A DNA stretch of 64,000 nucleotides from Escherichia phage nieznany, in sequence record NC_052659.1; one strand, given 5' to 3'. The notes under the pieces were generated by a model. The model had not been told where the DNA came from. It searched no databases and saw only the letters and a program-made list of their open reading frames with translations. Below are positions 2,523 to 44,302 of this stretch, piece by piece (positions within the stretch are counted from its first letter, which is position 1; every line of letters begins with the position of its first letter). Position numbers and translations under genes: made by a program.

Positions 2523-2996
2523 ATGTTTCAAGTAAATGTCAATGTGCATAATAGTTACTCTGATTGTGAGACGTGTGGCTATAATTCATCTAATGTTGTT
2601 CGTATTAGTGGCGATTTAGGAGAAGCTTCTTTTGGAGAAGAAGCAAGTTGCTTTAGTGGTATGGATGCAGAATGGAACGATATTGCACATTGGTTGGTGA
2701 GCAAACTAAAAGAAAAAGAGAAACCATTTCCTACTCTGCTTGATCGTTCTCTTGTAGAAGATGCAGGTAAAGCATATGCAGACTATGCGTATGCAGACGG
2801 GAAATATTTGGAAGATGATAAGGCTAACCATTTGCTTTATGTTTACTATGAAGCTGAATCTGCCTACGATAATTATTATAGCATGTCTAACATCCTACGT
2901 CTGTTTGCAGAGTTTGATATTTATTTCGAAGTAGAATTTTCAGAAGATGATACTTACGAATATGATTCTTATGATCCATTTGAGGAGGACGAATAA
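2523..2996 (+). CDS. acidic hypothetical protein
   Basis: 157-aa ORF after TAGGAGGG RBS; D/E/Y-rich C-terminus. Confidence 0.45.
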   Translation: MFQVNVNVHNSYSDCETCGYNSSNVVRISGDLGEASFGEEASCFSGMDAEWNDIAHWLVSKLKEKEKPFPTLLDRSLVEDAGKAYADYAYADGKYLEDDKANHLLYVYYEAESAYDNYYSMSNILRLFAEFDIYFEVEFSEDDTYEYDSYDPFEEDE

Positions 2997-3796
2997 TGCC
3001 AAGACGTGTATATTTTATTAGTGGTGCGGGACTAAGTGCTGACAGCGGAATCCAAACATTTCGCACAGAAACAGATTCTGGAAAGGCATTATGGGATGAA
3101 TACGATTTAACAGAAGTCTGTGACATTTTCAACTTCCGTGACGGTTATCAGCAAGAACAGGGTATTCCTGATGCTATGGGTGGCTTAGATGTGGAAGGAT
3201 ATAACCTCTACCGTAAAACTCACGACTTCTACAATAAACGTCGCGTGGAATTAGAGAAAGTTGACCCGAATCCAGCACATCTTCAGATTGGAGAATGGTT
3301 CGAAAAATACGGTGCAGAAAGGATTATTAACATTACTACTAACGTTGACGATCTATTAGAACGCGCTGGAATCGATAGAGAAGAAATATTGCACGTTCAT
3401 GGTTTCTTGCCAGAAGTTGTTGTTGATAACAAAATTATCAAAGATGTGGGTTACGCAGCTATTGATGTAGACGATTACAAATATGTGAAGCCTAATGTGG
3501 TGTTTTTTGGTGAGAATGCACCACTCTACACAGACATGTATCACAAACTGGATCAACTAACATCACAAGATATGGTTATCGTTGTAGGCTGCTCTAACCA
3601 AGTAATCAACTTCAACTGGGAACTCTTCCCTGCCCTGAATATTGGGGTTAAGATGGTTGTAGTTAACCCAGGTTTGAATTTTGTAGAACAAACTCTCTAC
3701 GAAGAACGTGGAGTGCTTGTCTACCGAGAGAAAGCAGGAACAGTCTTCAGTGATGAAGGCTTTATCAAAATGGTTGAAGACCATTTAAACAAATAA
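2996..3796 (+). CDS. Sir2-family (sirtuin-like) NAD-dependent protein
   Basis: FISGAGLSADSGIQTFR matches sirtuin GAGIS..GIP.FR NAD-binding motif; NITTNVDDLLERAG..HVHG matches sirtuin N.D.L..AG..LHG region. Confidence 0.65.
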   Translation: MPRRVYFISGAGLSADSGIQTFRTETDSGKALWDEYDLTEVCDIFNFRDGYQQEQGIPDAMGGLDVEGYNLYRKTHDFYNKRRVELEKVDPNPAHLQIGEWFEKYGAERIINITTNVDDLLERAGIDREEILHVHGFLPEVVVDNKIIKDVGYAAIDVDDYKYVKPNVVFFGENAPLYTDMYHKLDQLTSQDMVIVVGCSNQVINFNWELFPALNIGVKMVVVNPGLNFVEQTLYEERGVLVYREKAGTVFSDEGFIKMVEDHLNK

Positions 3797-10625: not shown

Positions 10626-11303
10626 CTATTTAATGTTAAGTCTGGCACACAAACGAGAAACAGTTTTAGCATCCCATTTACCACCACGTGCTGTTGCTAT
10701 TTTCTTACTATTGAATTTTTCAGCAATAGTTTTGTAAGGTGTATTTAAATCTCTAAGGATCTCCAAGCGTTCACGGAATGTCTCTGCAAAAGCGTCTGCT
10801 TTAACAGAGTTGTATTCCATTTTTCCTTTTCTACGTGCAGCGGCAGTTTTAGGATTAGCACTACCTAATAAAACACCTTTACTTTTTGCTACAGCAAGAC
10901 CCTTTTTAATGCGATCAGCAATGCCTCTAACTTCTTGTTCAGCCAGAACAGATAGAAGTTGTATAACCATTTTATCTGCGTCTGGCATGATGGCTATCTT
11001 AACATCGATCATTTCTAGAAGAGTTGCTACGGAGGCGTTGTTACGACCCAAGCGGTCAACTTTAGCTACCAATAAAGTTGCTCCGGTAGCTTTACACATT
11101 TCAACCGCTTTAACCAGTTCCTTACGTTGCTTCCAATCGCCCTTACCCGAATAGTATTCAGAAAATTGACCAATAACTTCAGCATCAGGCACAGAGTCTA
11201 AGAAGTAACGGATATCGTTCTCTTGGCTCTCCATACCATATTGTGCCTCACCTTTTTTCTGTTTAGAAAGACGACTGTAAACAACAAACTTTTTCATAAC
11301 CAC
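10626..11303 (-). CDS. serine recombinase (resolvase/invertase family)
   Basis: N-terminal VVYSRLSKQ (catalytic Ser region), LLVAKVDRLGRN and LAEQEVRGIADRIKKGLAVAKSKG match resolvase/invertase conserved blocks; C-terminal HTH-like tail. Confidence 0.65.
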   Translation of the reverse strand: MVMKKFVVYSRLSKQKKGEAQYGMESQENDIRYFLDSVPDAEVIGQFSEYYSGKGDWKQRKELVKAVEMCKATGATLLVAKVDRLGRNNASVATLLEMIDVKIAIMPDADKMVIQLLSVLAEQEVRGIADRIKKGLAVAKSKGVLLGSANPKTAAARRKGKMEYNSVKADAFAETFRERLEILRDLNTPYKTIAEKFNSKKIATARGGKWDAKTVSRLCARLNIK

Positions 11304-24937: not shown

Positions 24938-25135
24938 TTATTCTATTCCTGCAATTTGATTAACGCGCTTGCATTTTGTAGCGTGCTGGTCTTCTGTAAT
25001 GACTCCCATTTCTAACAGGGAATCAATGAAAGATAAAACCGTTTCATGATCATCCTGGGGGTGACTGAACTCAGTAAAACCGTTTACCACTACGTTGATT
25101 TGTCCAGCTTTCGCCACAATGTGCAATGTTGCCAT
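24938..25135 (-). CDS. small protein
   Basis: Start at internal ATG 25135 with GGAG RBS, downstream of hairpin 25154-25172. Confidence 0.45.
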   Translation of the reverse strand: MATLHIVAKAGQINVVVNGFTEFSHPQDDHETVLSFIDSLLEMGVITEDQHATKCKRVNQIAGIE

Positions 25136-25153
25136 GATCTTAACTCCAAATAG

Positions 25154-25213
25154 TGAGCGGCACCATTGCCGCCCTACAAGATGAATACTACGCCGCCGTC
25201 TGGTTAACGTCAA
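25154..25213 (-). promoter_or_regulatory. promoter (TTGACG -35) plus leader stem-loop; first module of leftward array
   Basis: Hairpin 25154-25172 (GAGCGGCACCATTGCCGCC); -35 complement 25208-25213. Confidence 0.45.
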
Positions 25214-25321
25214 CCATTTTTCAATCTTTTTTATTTTCTTTTTGCTTGCTATATATAAAGAAAAGGGCTATTATCTTTCTACCGCGCCAACCAGGGCGCA
25301 CAACAAAGAAAGGGCGATACC

Positions 25322-25585
25322 ATGACAACTACATTACACCTTATGCACTCATTGGGCTGGCAAGGCGGCACGGTGCACCAGGTAGCAAGCGCAACGGGCT
25401 TAAAGGTTGAAACAGTTCTCAACCTGGGCGATCATAGGGTGGAAGAAATAGATCATTTTGATACGTTCGCAAATGGTTATCTATGGGCTTGCAGTGGCGG
25501 CGGGGAAAGCAAGATACCACCAGGGGCGCGGGGCGATATGTATTTTTGGTTAGGTGTCCTATCCTGGCAAGAAAACAAAAAATAA
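25322..25585 (+). CDS. hypothetical protein (uncertain)
   Basis: 87-aa GC-rich ORF on plus strand, isolated among minus-strand genes. Confidence 0.3.
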   Translation: MTTTLHLMHSLGWQGGTVHQVASATGLKVETVLNLGDHRVEEIDHFDTFANGYLWACSGGGESKIPPGARGDMYFWLGVLSWQENKK

Positions 25586-25587
25586 TC

Positions 25588-25616
25588 TTGACAAGCCCAG
25601 GGATCGGGCTTATACT
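25588..25616 (+). promoter_or_regulatory. sigma70-like promoter TTGACA-N17-TATACT
   Basis: -35 25588-25593, -10 25611-25616; followed by about 110-nt GC-rich non-coding segment. Confidence 0.45.
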
Positions 25617-25974
25617 GTTTTACATACAGAAGAGGAAGCGCCACCCCCACGGCGTAAAGGCGGGGCTAACATACCAGGGGGCACTGGTTGGAAGGTTGAT
25701 CGCCGGTAGGCTGGGCGCTATATATTTGTAAAGAAATGTAAAGATAAAATAATCGCTTGCTTTCCTAGCTGGATCTGTTATTCTTATTACATGGCGAGGG
25801 GACACGGGAGCGCGAGACAAACACCGCCCCTGCGCGTCATTCTCTAAATGAGATTGATTCTTATTTAATAAGGTAAATGACAATCATTCTCATTTATAAA
25901 CTTAAATGCGAATCATTATCATTTGCATTTCCATATGAGAACTCTTCTCATTTTCACCTGCATAAAAATTTTTG

Positions 25975-26155
25975 TAAACTTTAAATTTTGCTTTTGTACT
26001 TTCATTTTTGTAAAAGCAAAAAAACTTTAAATACTGTGGGCGCGCAAAATTTTTAAAATTTTCCTTGACTTTTGAGTTTTGTTTTGTATCTAACATTTTA
26101 AGATAATTTTCCTAAACTTTAAATTTTGGTTTTCAACTTTCACTTTTGTAAATTC
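25975..26155. repeat. two direct repeats of about 43 bp (25975-26016 and 26113-26155) in AT-rich intergenic DNA
   Basis: TAAACTTTAAATTTTG(C/G)TTTT..ACTTTCA.TTTTGTAAA repeated; AAACTTTAAA motif four times. Confidence 0.45.
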
Positions 26156-26302
26156 TTAAAAAGTTTAAATAATTTGAGGGATTTTTGAGATAAAAGATAG
26201 TGGGAATTTGATATAACCTTTAATCTTATTGGTAAACCTTCAGGAACCCACTCAGATCGAATCCTAGTGATGCAAACTGAAAAAGACAAGGGTTTGTATA
26301 GG

Positions 26303-26340
26303 ACAAAATAACAGGCTCTCTACGGTGCTGTAGGAGCCTT
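26303..26340 (-). terminator. terminator candidate downstream of NADAR gene
   Basis: Imperfect hairpin GGCTCTCTAC..GTAGGAGCC with T-rich flank on minus strand. Confidence 0.4.
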
Positions 26341-26394
26341 ATTTCTGGGCTACAAAGTGACACCTTTGTTCTAAAAATGAAAAAAGTTAAAATA

Positions 26395-26937
26395 TCACAA
26401 ATATCGTCTTTGCGGTATTTTGTCTGGGAAAAGTATTTCGATCAGTTTATTATGATATTTGCCTAAAAGATTCTGCCCTTTCCAGGTAGCAGGGTTTAGC
26501 ACCCCTGGTTCATACATTCCCATTCCAATACCGTAAACCTTATCGTAAGGACTTGCTTCAACAAACGTTTTGTATTGGTAAAGGTGTAAGTCTGCATACA
26601 AATCTGGATTCTGTACATATTTCAAGCATAAGCCTCGCATAACAATACGCTCACGGTTCTCTTCCCACATATCATTATTAAAACCAGATACCGCTCGACC
26701 CATACGTTTGTAGTATGCTTGTTTCCTCTCGTTGTCACGTATAGTTGAGTGATCAAGGATAGCTGCTGCAATCGCATGATCCTTGAACAGCAAAGCCTTA
26801 CGCCACATCATATATTGCTCAACACAACAGAAAGTCTCATTGTAACCTGGTTCAGTTTCTGTAAAGGGTGCAATATACCAATTACTAAACACATCTTTAT
26901 GTGAAAAGAAGAATACATATTCATCAGTTATTCTCAT
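26395..26937 (-). CDS. NADAR-domain (YbiA/DUF1768-like) protein
   Basis: N-terminal FFFSHKDVFSNWY..F and EQYMMWRKALLF match NADAR conserved blocks. Confidence 0.6.
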   Translation of the reverse strand: MRITDEYVFFFSHKDVFSNWYIAPFTETEPGYNETFCCVEQYMMWRKALLFKDHAIAAAILDHSTIRDNERKQAYYKRMGRAVSGFNNDMWEENRERIVMRGLCLKYVQNPDLYADLHLYQYKTFVEASPYDKVYGIGMGMYEPGVLNPATWKGQNLLGKYHNKLIEILFPDKIPQRRYL

Positions 26938-27149
26938 TTTTTCATGCCTTCTAAAACTTTAGCTTGCCCGTCTTGAAAAGCTTTCATCAGAACTATCTTA
27001 AGATTGACTTCCAAACGTTCTTCATCCTCTCTATAACAATCCAACACTGCTTTAAGTTCATCATAGTGGTTCAGAATAGGTTTAAAGATTTCATGATCTG
27101 CTAAACGTGCCATAGTTTCTCCTTTGTTAGTCCATCCACCAGTAGCCAT
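26934..27149 (-). CDS. hypothetical protein
   Basis: 71-aa ORF. Confidence 0.45.
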   Translation of the reverse strand: MATGGWTNKGETMARLADHEIFKPILNHYDELKAVLDCYREDEERLEVNLKIVLMKAFQDGQAKVLEGMKK

Positions 27150-27492
27150 AAACTGCGTCTGCGTCGATGAGTTTGTGTTTGTTGTTCCGCATGTAGTCTA
27201 AGATAAGTAGACGTTTATTGTATCTGGAGAGATTATGACCCTCTTTTCCGCCATAGTCAAAATATTTTGCAAGATCTTTACACTCAAACAAAATCAGTTC
27301 GGGAGTTTCTTCACACTGGTCTGTCTGGTACACTTGACGAATGATCATGTATACATCGTCGTCTTCCGCTAAATGCTCTACTGGTCCACATCCAGCAGGA
27401 ACAAATTCATAGTCCCATCTGATCAGATGTTTCTCTACTGCTTCAAAGAAATCCATCCTTTCATTGCGCATAATTTGAACGTCAACTAACAT
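27127..27492 (-). CDS. hypothetical protein
   Basis: 121-aa ORF. Confidence 0.45.
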   Translation of the reverse strand: MLVDVQIMRNERMDFFEAVEKHLIRWDYEFVPAGCGPVEHLAEDDDVYMIIRQVYQTDQCEETPELILFECKDLAKYFDYGGKEGHNLSRYNKRLLILDYMRNNKHKLIDADAVYGYWWMD

Positions 27493-28946
27493 GTTTCCTC
27501 CTCTCTCATTATTCCACCTGCTTGGTTGATAGCACTTAAGACGATAGCCAAATCCTCGCGCAGGAAGGTTTCACTATGACCATCTTTCATGTGCAAGCGT
27601 TCTACACAGCCAATAGACGGTAGAATCTGATCAGTCTTAGACTTTAGCTTACTCTCTAACGCCCTGCAAGCTTGGTAGGACGGCAGATCGAACAATGCTA
27701 TACGGCGCATAGAGTAATTGTTGTTTGCATTCTGCCCTTTGATCCTGATATCACTGTCCTTTGCAATCCCCAACTTGTAAGCTCCCGTGTCTTCTCCGTA
27801 CTCATCAAGAATAATATTGATGTAAAATTCTTGCATATTTCTGTTCTTACAGCCTGGACAACCTTTCCCATTGAGATAATCGGTAGGTGTGATCGTTTGC
27901 TCTCCATGCTCCCTACATAGATATTTAAACTTGCTGTTATTGCTTACCTTATCAATGAATCCTATAAATTGATCCCCTCGTTCCTGGCAAGCTTTGGTCA
28001 TACGGTAGGCCCATTGTTCAGGAGTGTAATGATAATATTTAGAACAACGGCAAGGAAGGCCACCCCTTTTCAAATGACTCATCTTCATCTCAAATTTATT
28101 ATCGCATAAGCCTTCTTTACAATAATCATCCTCTGCACATATAGGACATTCTACAATCCAGTAAACCTGACGACCTAATCTATCTACTCTATCGCTACGA
28201 TAATATTTACGCTCTACATTATCAGGACAAGCTTTTATAAAATCTTCAACATGTTGTTTATCCTCCATAGTATTCCTTTGTTTCGTCATTTCTCTTTGAC
28301 AACTGTAGCATCCAGTCCCTTGTTTAGCACTGTTTACAGTGGTAGTGCACCATTGACCATGAACCTTACACTCACAAATCAACTTAGTGCGGGAACCGTT
28401 CCACGGTTCCACATAGCCTCTAACAATCCAGGGTTTTTCTTTATAAGCTTCTTCTACTTCTTCTTTATGTTTCTCCCATGCAATCGATGTTCTTTCTCTG
28501 TTTGCTTCTCCCATACACTTCCTGCATCCACTCCCGTTTTTCGCAGAAGATATAGAAGTAGACCTCCACTCCCCATGTAAAGCACAACAACAAACCAGTT
28601 TAGTATTCCATCCTTTCCATTCTCCGTGCCATCCTGTAACAGTCCAAAACTTACCTGCCTGATTGTAAGTGGTTTGCACTTCTTCTTTATATTGCTCCCA
28701 GGTTTTTGATTTGTTTATAGATACTGCTTTACTTATAATCTCCCTACCGCATTCTGGACAACCCCTCCCTAGTTTAGCGGTATTTATGCTTGTTGTTTTC
28801 CATTCTCCATGCAGAGCACAGATGCATCTAAGTTTAGTTTTATTGCCGTTCCACGGCTCAATATAATCTACAACAGTCCAAGACTTACCTTGATAAGCTT
28901 GTTTTATATCTGTTTTATATTGTTCCCAAGTGACTATTTTTGGCAC
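27486..28946 (-). CDS. multi-repeat zinc-ribbon protein with C-terminal T5orf172 / GIY-YIG-like domain
   Basis: Three to four tandem repeats of about 60 aa (WEQYK..KL.C.C..HGEW.TT...AK.G.GC..C); C-terminal FYINIILDEYG..AYKLGIAKD..R resembles T5orf172 motif. Confidence 0.5.
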   Translation of the reverse strand: MPKIVTWEQYKTDIKQAYQGKSWTVVDYIEPWNGNKTKLRCICALHGEWKTTSINTAKLGRGCPECGREIISKAVSINKSKTWEQYKEEVQTTYNQAGKFWTVTGWHGEWKGWNTKLVCCCALHGEWRSTSISSAKNGSGCRKCMGEANRERTSIAWEKHKEEVEEAYKEKPWIVRGYVEPWNGSRTKLICECKVHGQWCTTTVNSAKQGTGCYSCQREMTKQRNTMEDKQHVEDFIKACPDNVERKYYRSDRVDRLGRQVYWIVECPICAEDDYCKEGLCDNKFEMKMSHLKRGGLPCRCSKYYHYTPEQWAYRMTKACQERGDQFIGFIDKVSNNSKFKYLCREHGEQTITPTDYLNGKGCPGCKNRNMQEFYINIILDEYGEDTGAYKLGIAKDSDIRIKGQNANNNYSMRRIALFDLPSYQACRALESKLKSKTDQILPSIGCVERLHMKDGHSETFLREDLAIVLSAINQAGGIMREEETC

Positions 28947-29007
28947 ACCTCCCCCTTTAGCTATTAGTGCGAGCCTACAACAAAAGAATAACTAAAATCC
29001 CTCCATA

Positions 29008-29032
29008 ACAAATGCCCCTTGCGGGGCATCTT
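29008..29032 (-). terminator. terminator candidate
   Basis: ATGCCCCTTGCGGGGCAT hairpin with T-rich flanks. Confidence 0.45.
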
Positions 29033-29034
29033 TA

Positions 29035-30174
29035 TTAGAACACGCTACCAAGTGTAGTGGAACGTTGTGTTACAGGCTCCAGCACCACTCGCAAAGTGTT
29101 TCCTGGTGTAGTGCTCATAACCAGAATCTTACCACCTTCAATCAGATCACAAGTTAGACCATCAGCCGTTGCACATAGATCAATATGTGGATCACCATCT
29201 TCATCCAGGATAACATAACTGTTGGTTTCCATTGCTTCCACTTCATCATCTTTCAAACTTTGTAGATAGATGTTCAGGGAACAAGCACCCGACAAAAACT
29301 TAGTAGGGGTGAAGTCGTGCCAGTTATTGATCCAATTCACCTTCAAGGTTTTGCCATTAGCTACGATAGAAGCCACATTCCATTTAGCATCGTTCCCTAA
29401 AGAAATACCCATCATTTCAAGACATTCTTTAAAAGTCATTTTTGGATAGAAATTCAATTCTTCTACAATGCCTTGAATAACATCGAAAGACAACTCTGTG
29501 CTAACATCCCATAAACGTTGGAAGTTATCTACGTGCTTTTTATTTACCAAGTTCTTATCCAAGTAATCTAACATAGTTTCACTAGACAGTTTATCGTAAT
29601 TGAAACTGTAGTAGATACGACTAGGACGGTTTACAAAATATTCCGAGATATAACCACTATTTTTAGTGAGGATGTAAAGTTTATTCCCACTTCCTGTTCC
29701 ATCCAACAAGGTCAACAGTGCTTCCTGATCTTCTTTCTTAGCGTACACTTTATCAAATTCGTCAAATAAAACAACAGCACGATCTGTAATTTTACTCATA
29801 AATTCTAAGAAGCCAGCATCTGTGTAAGGCTGTGTAACCAAAATGGTTGGAATACCTAAACCTTCTGTGGACATTAGAGACATGCTAATCAGTTTAGCTA
29901 ACATCGTCTTACCACTGCCTTTTGTCCCTGTCAGTAACACCCCAGTATTTTTACCTTCTTTACTACGACGAGCAAATGTTTTAATAACATGTGCGGCGCG
30001 ATTTTTAGTTTCCCCATAAAGAGTGTTCGGAAGAGAGAAACTTTCACCACGCACTAAAGAGTAGTTACCGTGCGGATCGCAGTTGACAACCCAAACTCCA
30101 GCAGGAAGTTTATTAGCTTCAACGCCATATTCCTTATTTACAACAGCTACATCTCCAAAAATAGTGTATTTCAT
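29035..30174 (-). CDS. AAA+ family ATPase
   Basis: Walker A GTKGSGKT and Walker B VVLFDEFD. Confidence 0.6.
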   Translation of the reverse strand: MKYTIFGDVAVVNKEYGVEANKLPAGVWVVNCDPHGNYSLVRGESFSLPNTLYGETKNRAAHVIKTFARRSKEGKNTGVLLTGTKGSGKTMLAKLISMSLMSTEGLGIPTILVTQPYTDAGFLEFMSKITDRAVVLFDEFDKVYAKKEDQEALLTLLDGTGSGNKLYILTKNSGYISEYFVNRPSRIYYSFNYDKLSSETMLDYLDKNLVNKKHVDNFQRLWDVSTELSFDVIQGIVEELNFYPKMTFKECLEMMGISLGNDAKWNVASIVANGKTLKVNWINNWHDFTPTKFLSGACSLNIYLQSLKDDEVEAMETNSYVILDEDGDPHIDLCATADGLTCDLIEGGKILVMSTTPGNTLRVVLEPVTQRSTTLGSVF

Positions 30175-30530
30175 TAGAACGTTTCTCCTTTTAAAATAAT
30201 TACTGTAAACTTTGCAGTTTTTTCACTCTTAATATTCTTGACTAATAAGTATTCTCCTCCAGGGGCATCTTTGTATTGTTTAATAGCTACTATTTCATTT
30301 TTGCAAGTAGCTATAATCGAATAAAAAGGACGTTCCGTGTTATCTTCTTTTCCCGTATATGCCTCAACATCTTTACACTCTTCTAGAACACCATTCCCAG
30401 GTGTATAGTAAAACTTGTTGCCTGTGATCACAACATCTTTACCAATATCTGTTTTAACTGCTACAAATTTTTGAGCGTAAGTGGTGAAGCTTACGGTAGC
30501 CAGCAATGTGGCTAAGATTAGTTTTTTCAT
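30174..30530 (-). CDS. secreted protein with signal peptide
   Basis: Start at MKKLILATLLATVSFTTYAQ (internal ATG 30530) after GGAGGG RBS. Confidence 0.5.
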   Translation of the reverse strand: MKKLILATLLATVSFTTYAQKFVAVKTDIGKDVVITGNKFYYTPGNGVLEECKDVEAYTGKEDNTERPFYSIIATCKNEIVAIKQYKDAPGGEYLLVKNIKSEKTAKFTVIILKGETF

Positions 30531-30541
30531 AAACTTCCCTC

Positions 30542-30706
30542 CTATTCCCACAACATACAAATCGCAGCGACAAACATATTAGCAATAGCCGCACCAAGAA
30601 CTATAAACATCGCCAGTTCAGAACAATATTCACCAACCAAAGGGGATACTATTGCACAGAGTAACCCCAATGTCAAACACAAGTTGATGATGAAGTTTAA
30701 AATCAT
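30542..30706 (-). CDS. micro membrane protein (54 aa)
   Basis: ATG after GGAGAG; hydrophobic throughout. Confidence 0.3.
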   Translation of the reverse strand: MILNFIINLCLTLGLLCAIVSPLVGEYCSELAMFIVLGAAIANMFVAAICMLWE

Positions 30707-36580: not shown

Positions 36581-36949
36581 ATGAAGGTATTAAACTTTTA
36601 CCATTTAGGCAAAACAATCCCAGATGGTGCTGTTTATATTGGTAGAGCAATGCCACATATGGGACTAAAAGCCTCTAAGTTTGCAAACCCTTTTAAGTTA
36701 AAAGATGATGAACCACGAGGATCAACTATACAAAGGTATAAAGAGTGGTTGTGGGAGCAAATTCGTTGTGGTAAGATCACTCTTGAAGATTTATTAGAGT
36801 TAGAAGGGAAAGATTTAGTTTGCTTCTGCTCCCCTCAACCTTGTCATGGAGATGTATTGATAGCAGCCGTGGCCTGGGCTAGAAAAGAGTGGGACAAAAG
36901 GCATCCTACTTATGTAGACAATTATTGGATTTGGGAGGAGAATTTTTGA
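36581..36949 (+). CDS. DUF4326-like protein
   Basis: YIGR..GL..S.FANPF ... LVCFCSPQPCHGDVL pattern. Confidence 0.4.
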   Translation: MKVLNFYHLGKTIPDGAVYIGRAMPHMGLKASKFANPFKLKDDEPRGSTIQRYKEWLWEQIRCGKITLEDLLELEGKDLVCFCSPQPCHGDVLIAAVAWARKEWDKRHPTYVDNYWIWEENF

Positions 36950-41716: not shown

Positions 41717-42589
41717 ATGAAAGATTTGTACCAAGATGTTTTTTCTTTTTTAGATCGCACTTCAGAAACATACACTAGAGAGAATGCAAACAAACCTTCC
41801 CACCTCGTTAACACGCATAGGGATCTCTTGGCGGGGATTTTAAGCAAACATATGGCAATGACACAGATACTGCCAAAAAACTTGTCAGAATGGCATACAG
41901 AAGGTTTTGGACATATTCACGACTTGGATTATCTGCTCTCTCCTCTTACAAACTGTTGTCTTGTTAATTATCAAGATATGTTAGAGAATGGTTTTAAGAT
42001 CGGTGCTGCACAGATAGAAAAACCAAAATCTATTGGAGTAGCTACTACCGTGCTAACTCAAATCATCCAAGCTGTTGCCTCCAGTCAGTATGGAGGTCAG
42101 ACGTGTGCGCACATTGATAAAGGTCTTAGTCCTTATGTTGAAGCTAGTTTCCTTAAAAACATGGAGATAACCAAACGTCGCTACGGTTGTTATGCAAGGA
42201 AAGAAGCCCTAGAAATGACCGAACAAGATGTATATGACGCTATGCAAACTCTTTTGTATCAGGTTAACACTTTAATGAGTGTTAATGGACAATCTCCTTT
42301 TATTACAATCAGTATGGGTCTGGATACCTCTGTTTTTGGCAGAATGATCACAGCTAACTATCTTAAAGTGCATAGTAACGGTCTAGGTAAAGATCATGTA
42401 ACGCCTGTATTCCCTAAAGTTATTTTCTTTTTACAAGAAGGTGTTAACATGAAACCTAGTGATCCTAACTACGACCTTAAGCAACAAGCTTTGGCATGTT
42501 GTGCTGATCGTATTTATCCAGATTTTATTTCTGTTCCTTTGAACAAAGAAGTTACGGGGTCAGCAGATGGCACTGTTACGAGTATGGGT
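41717..42589 (+). CDS. nrdD: anaerobic ribonucleoside-triphosphate reductase NrdD, exon 1
   Basis: N-terminal half of class III RNR; frame ends in stop shortly after proposed 5' splice site (..TSMG). Confidence 0.65.
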
Positions 42590-43360
42590 AAACTATAACT
42601 GCTCATGTAAAATCTGCCTAAACGGGGGAACTCTCAACAGAGACAATCCCGTGCTAAACGTAACAGAACTCCCAACACAGAAGAAGGGGGGTACTGATAT
42701 GAGAAAACAAATTCGTGATTTTGAAGGGTATGAAATTGACGAGCTTGGAAATGTTTATTGTACCAGGTATAAGGATGAAAGAATCCTTCGCTCGTGGGAA
42801 GAAATAAACACAGGATACCAACTTGTCAGAATACGTAAAAACAAGAAAACTGTTTGCTTTCGGGTGCACAGACTTGTAGCTGAAGCGTTTTTACCCAATC
42901 CAGACAATTTACCTTATGTGAAGCATAAAGGTGACAATAGGAAAGACAACAGTGTATACAATCTTGAGTGGGGATCTTGTCCAGACAACACGCAAGAGGG
43001 TTACGATAATAACTGTTATGCTTTCTACACAAGGTGTCACAGTGTAAAAGCTACTCATAAGGCTACTGGTGAAGTTTTTTACTTTAAAAGTCTGAGATGT
43101 TGTGCTGACGCTTTAGGGTTGGACAGAAAAAGAATATCTGCAATCTTAAAGCAAGGAGCACCAAATAATTATGATTATGAGTTCTGTTACGAAATGCCTA
43201 ACGACTAGCTGTGATGAATGTAGCAGCGTAGGGTGTAAGCCTATGACACCCCAAATGGTAGACATGCTTTAAGCATGAAGATATAGTCTGATCTGCATGG
43301 TGACATGCAGCAGCACGTAATGGTGCGGGAGTGGCCTTGCGAGCCACTTTGAACATAATG
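42590..43360 (+). mobile_element. group I intron (putative) interrupting nrdD, carrying HNH homing endonuclease ORF
   Basis: Exon 1 ends with T; intron ends with G before TGT(Cys); splicing restores frame giving ..TSMG-CRSFLSYY.. and about 604-aa NrdD. Confidence 0.5.
42699..43208 (+). CDS. HNH homing endonuclease (intron-encoded)
   Basis: GYEIDELGNVY ... VHRLVAEAF ... KHKGDNRKDNSVYNLEW HNH family pattern; own RBS. Confidence 0.6.
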   Translation: MRKQIRDFEGYEIDELGNVYCTRYKDERILRSWEEINTGYQLVRIRKNKKTVCFRVHRLVAEAFLPNPDNLPYVKHKGDNRKDNSVYNLEWGSCPDNTQEGYDNNCYAFYTRCHSVKATHKATGEVFYFKSLRCCADALGLDRKRISAILKQGAPNNYDYEFCYEMPND

Positions 43361-44302
43361 TGTAGAAGTTTCTTGTCATACTATGCAACAGAGCAAGGAG
43401 AAAAATATGATGGACGATTCAACCTTGGAGTAGTTTCTATCAACTTGCCTCTGATTGCTGCGGAAGCGAGAAGTAAAGGAGAATCTTTCACCGATCTTCT
43501 TAATAAACATATGGAGATAGCCTACGATGCTCACATGCTACGTGTAAACCGTATCAGACATACCAAAGCATCTGAAAACCCTATTCTTTTCATGGAAGGG
43601 GCTTTAGCGCGTTTAAATGCCAACGATGAAATTGGTGCTTTGTTTGAAGGTGGTTATGCTTCTATTAGTATTGGTTATGTAGGTCTTGCCGAAGCTTTGG
43701 AAATCCTTTATCCAGAGGAAAAAGATAAAAAGGAACTAGGTAAAAACATTCTGCAACATATGAAAGATGTGTGTGCTGTGTTTAAAGAACGATCTAAGTT
43801 GGCATTTAGTCTTTATGGAACTCCAGCAGAATCCTTGTGCTATAAATTTGCAACAGCTTTAAATGAAAAATATCCAGGTCTGGTAGAAAGAGACTATCTT
43901 ACTAATTCTTTTCATCAACCTGTATGGTTGGTAACAAATCCTTTTGAAAAATGGGATTATGAAGCAGGTTTTGCACAGATTAGCAATGGTGGTAACATAA
44001 GTTATGTCGAAACACCAAACTTAAAGAATAACTTAGAAGCTTTGGAGACTTTAGTAGACTACGCTTATGAACATATTCACTATTTTGGTATTAATCAGCC
44101 CGTGGATCAATGCTTTAAGTGTGGTTTTCATGGAGAATTTAAGGCAACGGCTAAAGGGTTTGAGTGTCCTAATTGTGGCAACCATGAAGAAGAAACTATT
44201 TCTGTAGTTAGACGTGTATCAGGGTATCTTTCTGCCCCTAATTCACGGCCTTATAACAAAGGTAAAATGCAGGAAGTTTTGCAAAGGGAGAAACATCTTT
44301 GA
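43361..44302 (+). CDS. nrdD: anaerobic ribonucleoside-triphosphate reductase NrdD, exon 2
   Basis: C-terminal Zn ribbon CFKCG..CPNCG and glycyl-radical motif RRVSGYL. Confidence 0.65.
   Translation, partial: CRSFLSYYATEQGEKYDGRFNLGVVSINLPLIAAEARSKGESFTDLLNKHMEIAYDAHMLRVNRIRHTKASENPILFMEGALARLNANDEIGALFEGGYASISIGYVGLAEALEILYPEEKDKKELGKNILQHMKDVCAVFKERSKLAFSLYGTPAESLCYKFATALNEKYPGLVERDYLTNSFHQPVWLVTNPFEKWDYEAGFAQISNGGNISYVETPNLKNNLEALETLVDYAYEHIHYFGINQPVDQCFKCGFHGEFKATAKGFECPNCGNHEEETISVVRRVSGYLSAPNSRPYNKGKMQEVLQREKHL

Follow-up and report, generated by a model that had tools for sequence, protein, structure and literature searches.

The window analyzed here, a 64,000-nucleotide stretch of Escherichia phage nieznany (NC_052659.1), encodes a stand-alone NADAR-domain protein that is probably an AdfN-type enzyme stripping guanine-linked ADP-ribose (G-ADPr) from phage DNA to overcome bacterial DarTG1 defense, a reading to which we assign a probability of roughly 0.7 on sequence, a structure model, and analogy with a tested orthologue. 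By that analogy, we infer for this allele an activity like that of AdfN-Bas60, with DarT1-type modification as the natural target. The original prediction had proposed, from the letters of the sequence, that this phage NADAR acts as a counter-defense against DNA ADP-ribosylation, and this proposal is now the best supported reading, with profile searches, fold, active site, and orthology with the Bas60 protein all behind it.

A phage NADAR that reverses guanine ADP-ribosylation is not new in itself, having been published in 2024–2025 for T4 gp30.3, Bas32, and Bas60. The gain lies in annotation rather than concept: in dozens of public Phapecoctavirus genomes, the gene can be relabeled as a probable anti-DarTG1 factor (AdfN family). 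Phapecoctavirus phages are candidate agents for treating or biologically controlling pathogenic E. coli, and knowing which defenses they bypass aids host-range prediction.

The NADAR gene and its public copies

The ORF, unbroken on the minus strand, starts with the ATG at position 26937, ends with the stop codon at 26395-26397, and encodes 180 residues, including both blocks on which the NADAR assignment had been based (FSNWY, residues 17-21, and EQYMMWRKA, residues 40-48). Profile searches bear the assignment out: Pfam NADAR (PF08719, DUF1768) matches at E=3.4e-35 and 122.1 bits (cutoff 35.1) over profile positions 3-154 of 163, NCBIfam TIGR02464 at 114.9 bits (cutoff 73.7), and phrog_1017 at E=3.8e-51, while the solved NADAR of Phytophthora nicotianae (8BAU) matches the protein at E=1.2e-12 with HMMER. 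The ORF is a real NADAR protein, far above chance.

Over the 4 kb around the gene, identity is 99.8% with Escherichia phage vB_EcoM_Schickermooser and 98-99% with a large number of further Phapecoctavirus genomes; judged by these matches, the window is a Phapecoctavirus genome (Stephanstirmvirinae). A protein 100% identical to the window NADAR occurs in at least 17 public phage records and copies with at least 80% identity in 69, and the gene is full-length in 124 of 126 strongly matching phage records, with a single copy per genome. Across all phages, homologues occur in 717 records, most of them from large myoviruses of Staphylococcus, Listeria, Enterococcus, Bacillus, and enterobacteria.

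The Schickermooser record annotates the gene (HOV53_gp170) as "hypothetical protein, DUF1768", and public labels for the window NADAR comprise "hypothetical", "GTP cyclohydrolase II", and "putative YbiA-like N-glycosidase". The latter two labels, together with the TIGR02464 match ("riboflavin biosynthesis intermediates N-glycosidase"), would fit a YbiA-like housekeeping N-glycosidase that clears reactive riboflavin-pathway intermediates. We regard this as extremely unlikely. The "GTP cyclohydrolase II" label is an annotation artefact that goes back to a fusion protein called "Uncharacterized domain COG3236 / GTP cyclohydrolase II", and where Schickermooser aligns with ~16500-64000 of the window, its annotation lists no gene of the riboflavin pathway. 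Pairwise similarity to E. coli YbiA amounts to 29% identity over only 96 residues, and a profile of the window NADAR family favors 8BAU (6.7e-35) over YbiA (2.8e-16) by 19 orders of magnitude. Moreover, the authors of AdfN-Bas60 group it with non-YbiA bacterial NADARs (PMC11825919), and YbiA itself hydrolyses G-ADPr (PMC11125620).

Putative transcription unit and gene neighborhood

The gene is phage-encoded and stand-alone, and its neighbors are an AAA ATPase, a CapR-repeat protein, and two small ORFs without a Pfam hit. The features of this region are as follows:

26304-26338, minus strand: terminator-like hairpin GGCUCCUACAGCACCGUAGAGAGCC (26314-26338) followed by the U-tract UGUUAUUUUGU, ~57 nt past the NADAR stop
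26395-26937, minus strand: NADAR-domain protein of 180 aa, identified by ORF, Pfam, NCBIfam, PHROG, AlphaFold2, and Foldseek; HOV53_gp170 in Schickermooser; AdfN-Bas60 orthologue by sequence and gene order
26947-26951, minus strand: GAAGG Shine-Dalgarno read from the sequence, 9 nt upstream of the NADAR ATG
26934-27149, minus strand: small ORF of 59-71 aa (phrog_22330), directly upstream of NADAR; missing between the endonuclease-like gene and NADAR in Bas60/61
27127-27492, minus strand: 121-aa ORF (phrog_24465) of the NADAR unit, no Pfam hit; missing here in Bas60/61
27486-28946, minus strand: 486-aa protein with five CapR-homology repeats (phrog_681, "endonuclease"), first gene of the NADAR unit; 35% identical to bas60_0110

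The NADAR ATG overlaps the TGA of the upstream small ORF (ATGA, 26934-26937), which suggests that its start is translationally coupled to that ORF. Beyond the stop codon, RNA from 26285-26400 folds at -29.3 kcal/mol (z=-3.8) and the phAPEC8 record has a terminator annotated at the equivalent place; the terminator-like hairpin marks where the transcription unit ends. A second hairpin/terminator, at 29012-29029 (plus strand in a simple scan), lies between the AAA ATPase and the endonuclease-like gene, and the two hairpins together make NADAR the last gene of a putative four-gene unit. A sigma-70 promoter scan of 25000-30600 showed no enrichment (15 sites vs 15.1 expected).

The CapR-repeat gene is hypervariable in the genus, differing from phAPEC8 by 40-50% nucleotide mismatch between nearly identical flanks, and its product is probably a selfish or unrelated neighbor rather than a partner of NADAR.

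The ~1.1 kb downstream of NADAR (25213-26395) is sparsely coding, and its annotations conflict between public records. Scans of the whole window for tRNAs and for Rfam families at the gathering threshold returned nothing, so that this stretch is not explained by a known RNA. It contains an 87-aa ORF (25322-25585, plus strand), antisense to the NADAR unit, that lacks a Pfam hit and shows 92% identity between the genera Phapecoctavirus and Justusliebigvirus, compared with only 35-64% for the flanking genes.

Selection and allele structure

Within Phapecoctavirus, the dN/dS of the NADAR gene is 0.13-0.16, placing it under purifying selection. Relative to the phAPEC8 allele, mismatches reach 33% per 100 nt across ~26650-26850 and only 0-2% in the flanks, and 16 of the 18 amino-acid differences fall within the divergent central block (residues 34-90). 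Because divergence is concentrated in one block, the pattern indicates a mosaic gene in which an old divergent central cassette was swapped by recombination. A loop of this cassette (residues ~63-71) carries a 7-residue insertion that is common to Justusliebigvirus-type sequences and missing in bacterial homologues.

Predicted fold and active site

The NADAR fold on which the original prediction depended was recovered by structure prediction. An AlphaFold2 model built on 67 homologues reached a mean pLDDT of 95.4 and a pTM of 0.89, and its best Foldseek match in the PDB is 8BAU, a NADAR with bound ADP-ribose (TM 0.79, probability 1.0). E. coli YbiA (2B3W) follows with TM 0.69, and no other PDB entry matches at E<0.9. 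Model and matches alike have a YbiA-like fold, with an alpha-helical core and small flanking beta sheets.

Active-site residues were mapped through a HMMER alignment to 8BAU, allowing for a two-residue numbering offset, with residue roles taken from PMC11543638:

Mapped active-site residues of the window NADAR: S18, E40, K47, K77, R81, W91, R95, E127, D132

In this mapping, E40 corresponds to Phytophthora E43 (distal ribose), K47 to K50 (contacts phosphate and adenine), K77 to K75, R81 to R79, W91 to W89, R95 to R93, E127 to E125 (the catalytic position), and D132 to D130; S18 matches a conserved Ser described in PMC12945103. Six of these residues (S18, E40, K47, W91, E127, and D132) are invariant in the 67-sequence homologue alignment, and K77 and R81 are conserved in at least 90% of it. 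Phytophthora E43, K50, and E125 are the counterparts of E88, K95, and D171, which were mutated in the E. coli C7 NADAR (PMC11543638), and K95, the equivalent of K50, is essential there (PMC11543638, Schuller et al. 2023).

The catalytic position is occupied by Asp in DarT1-linked antitoxins and by His in T4-type phage NADARs (PMC11543638, PMC12945103); in the window NADAR, it is Glu (E127). While every NADAR family tested hydrolyses G-ADPr in vitro (PMC11125620; PMC12945103), Glu-type NADAR/YbiA enzymes remove both G-ADPr and cytidine-linked ADP-ribose (C-ADPr) from ssDNA and ssRNA, whereas the Asp-type (DarG1) and His-type (T4) enzymes remove G-ADPr only (PMC12945103). Because its catalytic residue is a Glu, as in the tested Glu-type NADARs, we predict by analogy that the window NADAR would also remove C-ADPr and act on RNA, giving it a broader range than T4 AdfN.

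Orthology with AdfN-Bas60

Outside Phapecoctavirus, the nearest relatives of the window NADAR are found in Justusliebigvirus, a genus of the same subfamily (Stephanstirmvirinae), at 57% identity. They include three BASEL phages, Bas60 (PaulScherrer; bas60_0111, QXV83846.1), Bas61 (EmilieFrey), and Bas62 (JohannJBalmer), whose NADAR proteins share 98.9-100% identity. Between the window protein and bas60_0111, the alignment spans 172 residues (57% identity, E=9e-68), and gene order is conserved between the window and Bas60: an AAA ATPase (64%), a CapR-repeat "endonuclease" (35%), NADAR, a terminator, and an opposite-strand ORF of 87/88 aa (92%). Judged by identity and gene order, the window NADAR is the syntenic orthologue of bas60_0111, that is, of AdfN-Bas60.

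According to Johannesman et al. [quoted passage not shown] Catalytic DarT1 neutralization combined with rescue of plaquing on DarTG1 is shown for AdfN-T4, AdfN-Bas32, and AdfN-Bas60 only (PMC11825919).

AdfN-Bas60 resembles the window NADAR in being a stand-alone core domain with the same E/K/E active-site residues, the same hit to the PADLOC candidate defense model PDC-M42C, and the same insertion in the loop after helix 54-62. It differs in 43% of residues; the N-terminal loop of the window protein is 7 residues shorter and its C-terminal tail is another one. Bas60/61 also lack the two small ORFs that precede NADAR in the window, one of them translationally coupled there.

This divergence from the tested orthologue counts against the AdfN reading, as does the use of ectopic expression for AdfN-Bas60, with no knockout in its own phage described in the accessible text (PMC11825919). 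YbiA and T4 gp30.3 are active in vitro yet do not rescue cells from DarT1 toxicity (PMC11125620), so in vivo specificity is unreadable from the fold. The window NADAR further lacks the basic N-terminal extension of DarG1, for which a role in ssDNA binding has been proposed (PMC11543638). We found no experimental link of Phapecoctavirus or Stephanstirmvirinae to DarTG in the literature.

Placement among NADAR types

Among cellular proteins, the nearest homologues, at 40-49% identity, come from Myxococcota, Burkholderia, and Paenibacillus and are stand-alone members of the NADAR family. Stand-alone NADARs, including 8BAU (the top solved structure in sequence as well as fold), S. coelicolor SCO5665, and the sigma70-linked E. 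coli NADAR, have the Glu active site in common with the window protein, and the family removes G- and C-ADPr from DNA and RNA (PMC12945103). These examples differ in being cellular proteins; 8BAU is 28% identical to the window NADAR and has extra N-terminal helices and another insertion. YbiA (2B3W) shares superfamily, fold, Glu-type site, and the TIGR02464 match, but is a housekeeping gene in a LexA-controlled operon (PMC11125620).

The antitoxins of the DarG1 / BC4488 type have the same fold, and the window protein is expected by analogy to share their chemistry, hydrolysis of guanine-N2-ADP-ribose (PMC11543638). They are distinguished by a basic N-terminal beta-beta-alpha (beta1-beta2-alpha1) extension, a catalytic Asp, and a gene adjoining darT1, whereas the window NADAR has a core-only start, a Glu, and no recognizable ADP-ribosyltransferase gene among the scanned neighbors. 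We rejected DarG1 membership on the Glu in place of Asp, the start of the model at core strand 7-10, and the lack of a PADLOC DarG hit; the family profile retrieved no DarG1-type structure at E<=1.

AdfN-T4 (gp30.3) is likewise a phage orphan NADAR without a cognate toxin; it removes G-ADPr and counters DarTG1, with full activity requiring a T-even context. T4-type enzymes differ in carrying His where the window NADAR has Glu and in leaving C-ADPr (PMC12945103). Membership of the gp30.3 clade was rejected, given the retained E127 and the lack of significant similarity between T4 gp30.3 and the window NADAR (BLASTP E=4).

The Glu-type site also bears on a reading in which the main substrate is ADP-ribosylated RNA (G/C adducts that RNA-directed toxins place on tRNA, mRNA, or rRNA) or C-ADPr DNA, with DarT1 reversal as a side activity. 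The substrate range of Glu-type enzymes on single-stranded DNA and RNA would suit it (PMC12945103), as would the ~118 bits that the window NADAR and AdfN-Bas60 (L005 3501-4052) each score on the uncharacterized PDC-M42C. Yet no phage defense that makes C-ADPr, or G-ADPr on RNA, was found in the literature, CmdT modifies adenine, and the orthologue restores full titres on DarTG1 (PMC11825919). We consider this reading unlikely.

Genomic context of bacterial relatives

ORFs were called, clustered, and searched against Pfam in the best 80 genomic loci found with a 10-sequence profile. The loci of 15 Paenibacillaceae species hold, in this order, NrtR (a Nudix-type regulator), NADAR, and microbial PARG on one strand with short gaps, and 8 of them run on into a Macro-domain protein. 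Four Clostridia species (Ruminococcus/Lachnoclostridium) have NADAR directly upstream of uvrB/uvrA or uvrA. Neighbors of this kind connect the NADAR clade with the removal of ADP-ribose and with DNA repair, not with riboflavin synthesis. The counts stem from few lineages and are not independent events.

The Burkholderia copies appear to lie in prophages, next to a Gp3-like protein, a faint metallophosphatase hit, and a large ATPase matching PADLOC LmuB/JetC-type models, while the neighbors of the Kofleriaceae copies are uninformative. PADLOC scans of the Burkholderia and Kofleriaceae neighbors for an ADP-ribosyltransferase partner gave nothing relevant.

The neighborhoods also weigh on the possibility that the window NADAR acts not on nucleic-acid adducts but on soluble immune signals or toxins derived from ADP-ribose, such as cyclic ADPR variants, which it would break down at an N-glycosidic ribosyl bond. 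Iyer et al. 2022 proposed degradation of such signals for phage NADARs generally, and the Macro, Sir2, and DUF4326 genes of the window could be read in the same way. However, the four relatives adjoining uvrB/uvrA point to DNA, DarT1, the toxin countered by the orthologue, produces a DNA adduct (PMC11825919), and a search of the literature found neither a NADAR that cleaves a soluble signal nor other biochemical support for the proposal. We judge it very unlikely.

Proposed mechanism and breadth of function

Under the preferred AdfN-type reading, the window NADAR would be an ADP-ribosylglycohydrolase of the orphan-antitoxin type that binds ADP-ribosylated nucleic acid during infection, with K47, R81, W91, and R95 positioning the pyrophosphate and E40 and E127 the distal ribose. 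It would then hydrolyse the N-glycosidic bond that joins ADP-ribose to guanine N2, removing adducts set by DarT1 or other guanine-directed ADP-ribosyltransferases that would otherwise block replication. Adduct removal would in turn allow the phage to replicate in DarTG1-carrying E. coli.

More tentatively, the Stephanstirmvirinae NADAR may be a broad eraser (G and C, on DNA and RNA) whose targets include as yet undescribed toxins unrelated to DarT, rather than a dedicated anti-DarT1 factor; we hold this to be possible but clearly less likely than not. Its targets might then include PDC-M42, whose C component the window NADAR resembles; we found no mention of this PADLOC system in the literature. 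If the broad-eraser reading were true, NADAR and the Tk.4/AdfM-like macro protein described below (thymine-ADPr) would cover three of the four bases, and the recombined, highly divergent central block (residues ~34-90, with its subfamily-specific loop) would be an arms-race surface.

Other genes of the window

The genome had also been said to encode a macro domain and a Sir2-family protein, and both are present. The macro-domain protein (47021/47075-47560, plus strand) scores 21.8 bits on PF01661, just below the 22-bit cutoff, and matches the macrodomain portion of PADLOC's DarG model with 38 bits. It shares 37% identity (E=2e-21) with T4 Tk.4, recently named AdfM, an anti-DarTG2 factor (preprint 10.1101/2025.11.20.689424). 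From these similarities, the window phage may carry counter-measures to both DarTG types, and Phapecoctavirus phages probably hold an AdfN-like NADAR together with an AdfM-like macro domain. The macro gene sits within a Ter/PRTase/HAD-hydrolase cluster, and its product could instead serve that pathway, the substrate being either thymine-ADPr DNA or a metabolite of the cluster.

The Sir2-family protein (2996-3796, plus strand; phrog_2162) matches PF02146 at 74.5 bits (E=1.4e-20). A DUF4326 protein (36581-36949, plus strand; 77.9 bits) is the fourth NAD/ADPr-related gene in the window; for DUF4326, a role in processing the phosphates of ADP-ribose breakdown products has been proposed, and fusions with Macro, NADAR, or SLOG domains are frequent (Iyer et al. 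2022).

This phage, which is considered virulent, also encodes a serine recombinase/resolvase (10626-11303, minus strand; 65.9 bits on PF00239).

A 779-bp insert (42590-43368) that is missing from Schickermooser interrupts nrdD, the gene for anaerobic ribonucleotide reductase (41717-44302), at Pfam position 263. The insert region contains an HNH/I-HmuI-like ORF (42567-43208) and a full-length, sub-threshold match to the group I intron family RF00028 (43071-43310; 39.7 bits vs 50), and by these features looks like a mobile intron. The whole insert is found in only 27 phage records, those listed including Phapecoctavirus, Justusliebigvirus, and a few other E. coli phages. Partial matches occur in ~190 further records, with T4-like phages among the organisms, and identity is at least 99% in 116 of the 214 matching records.
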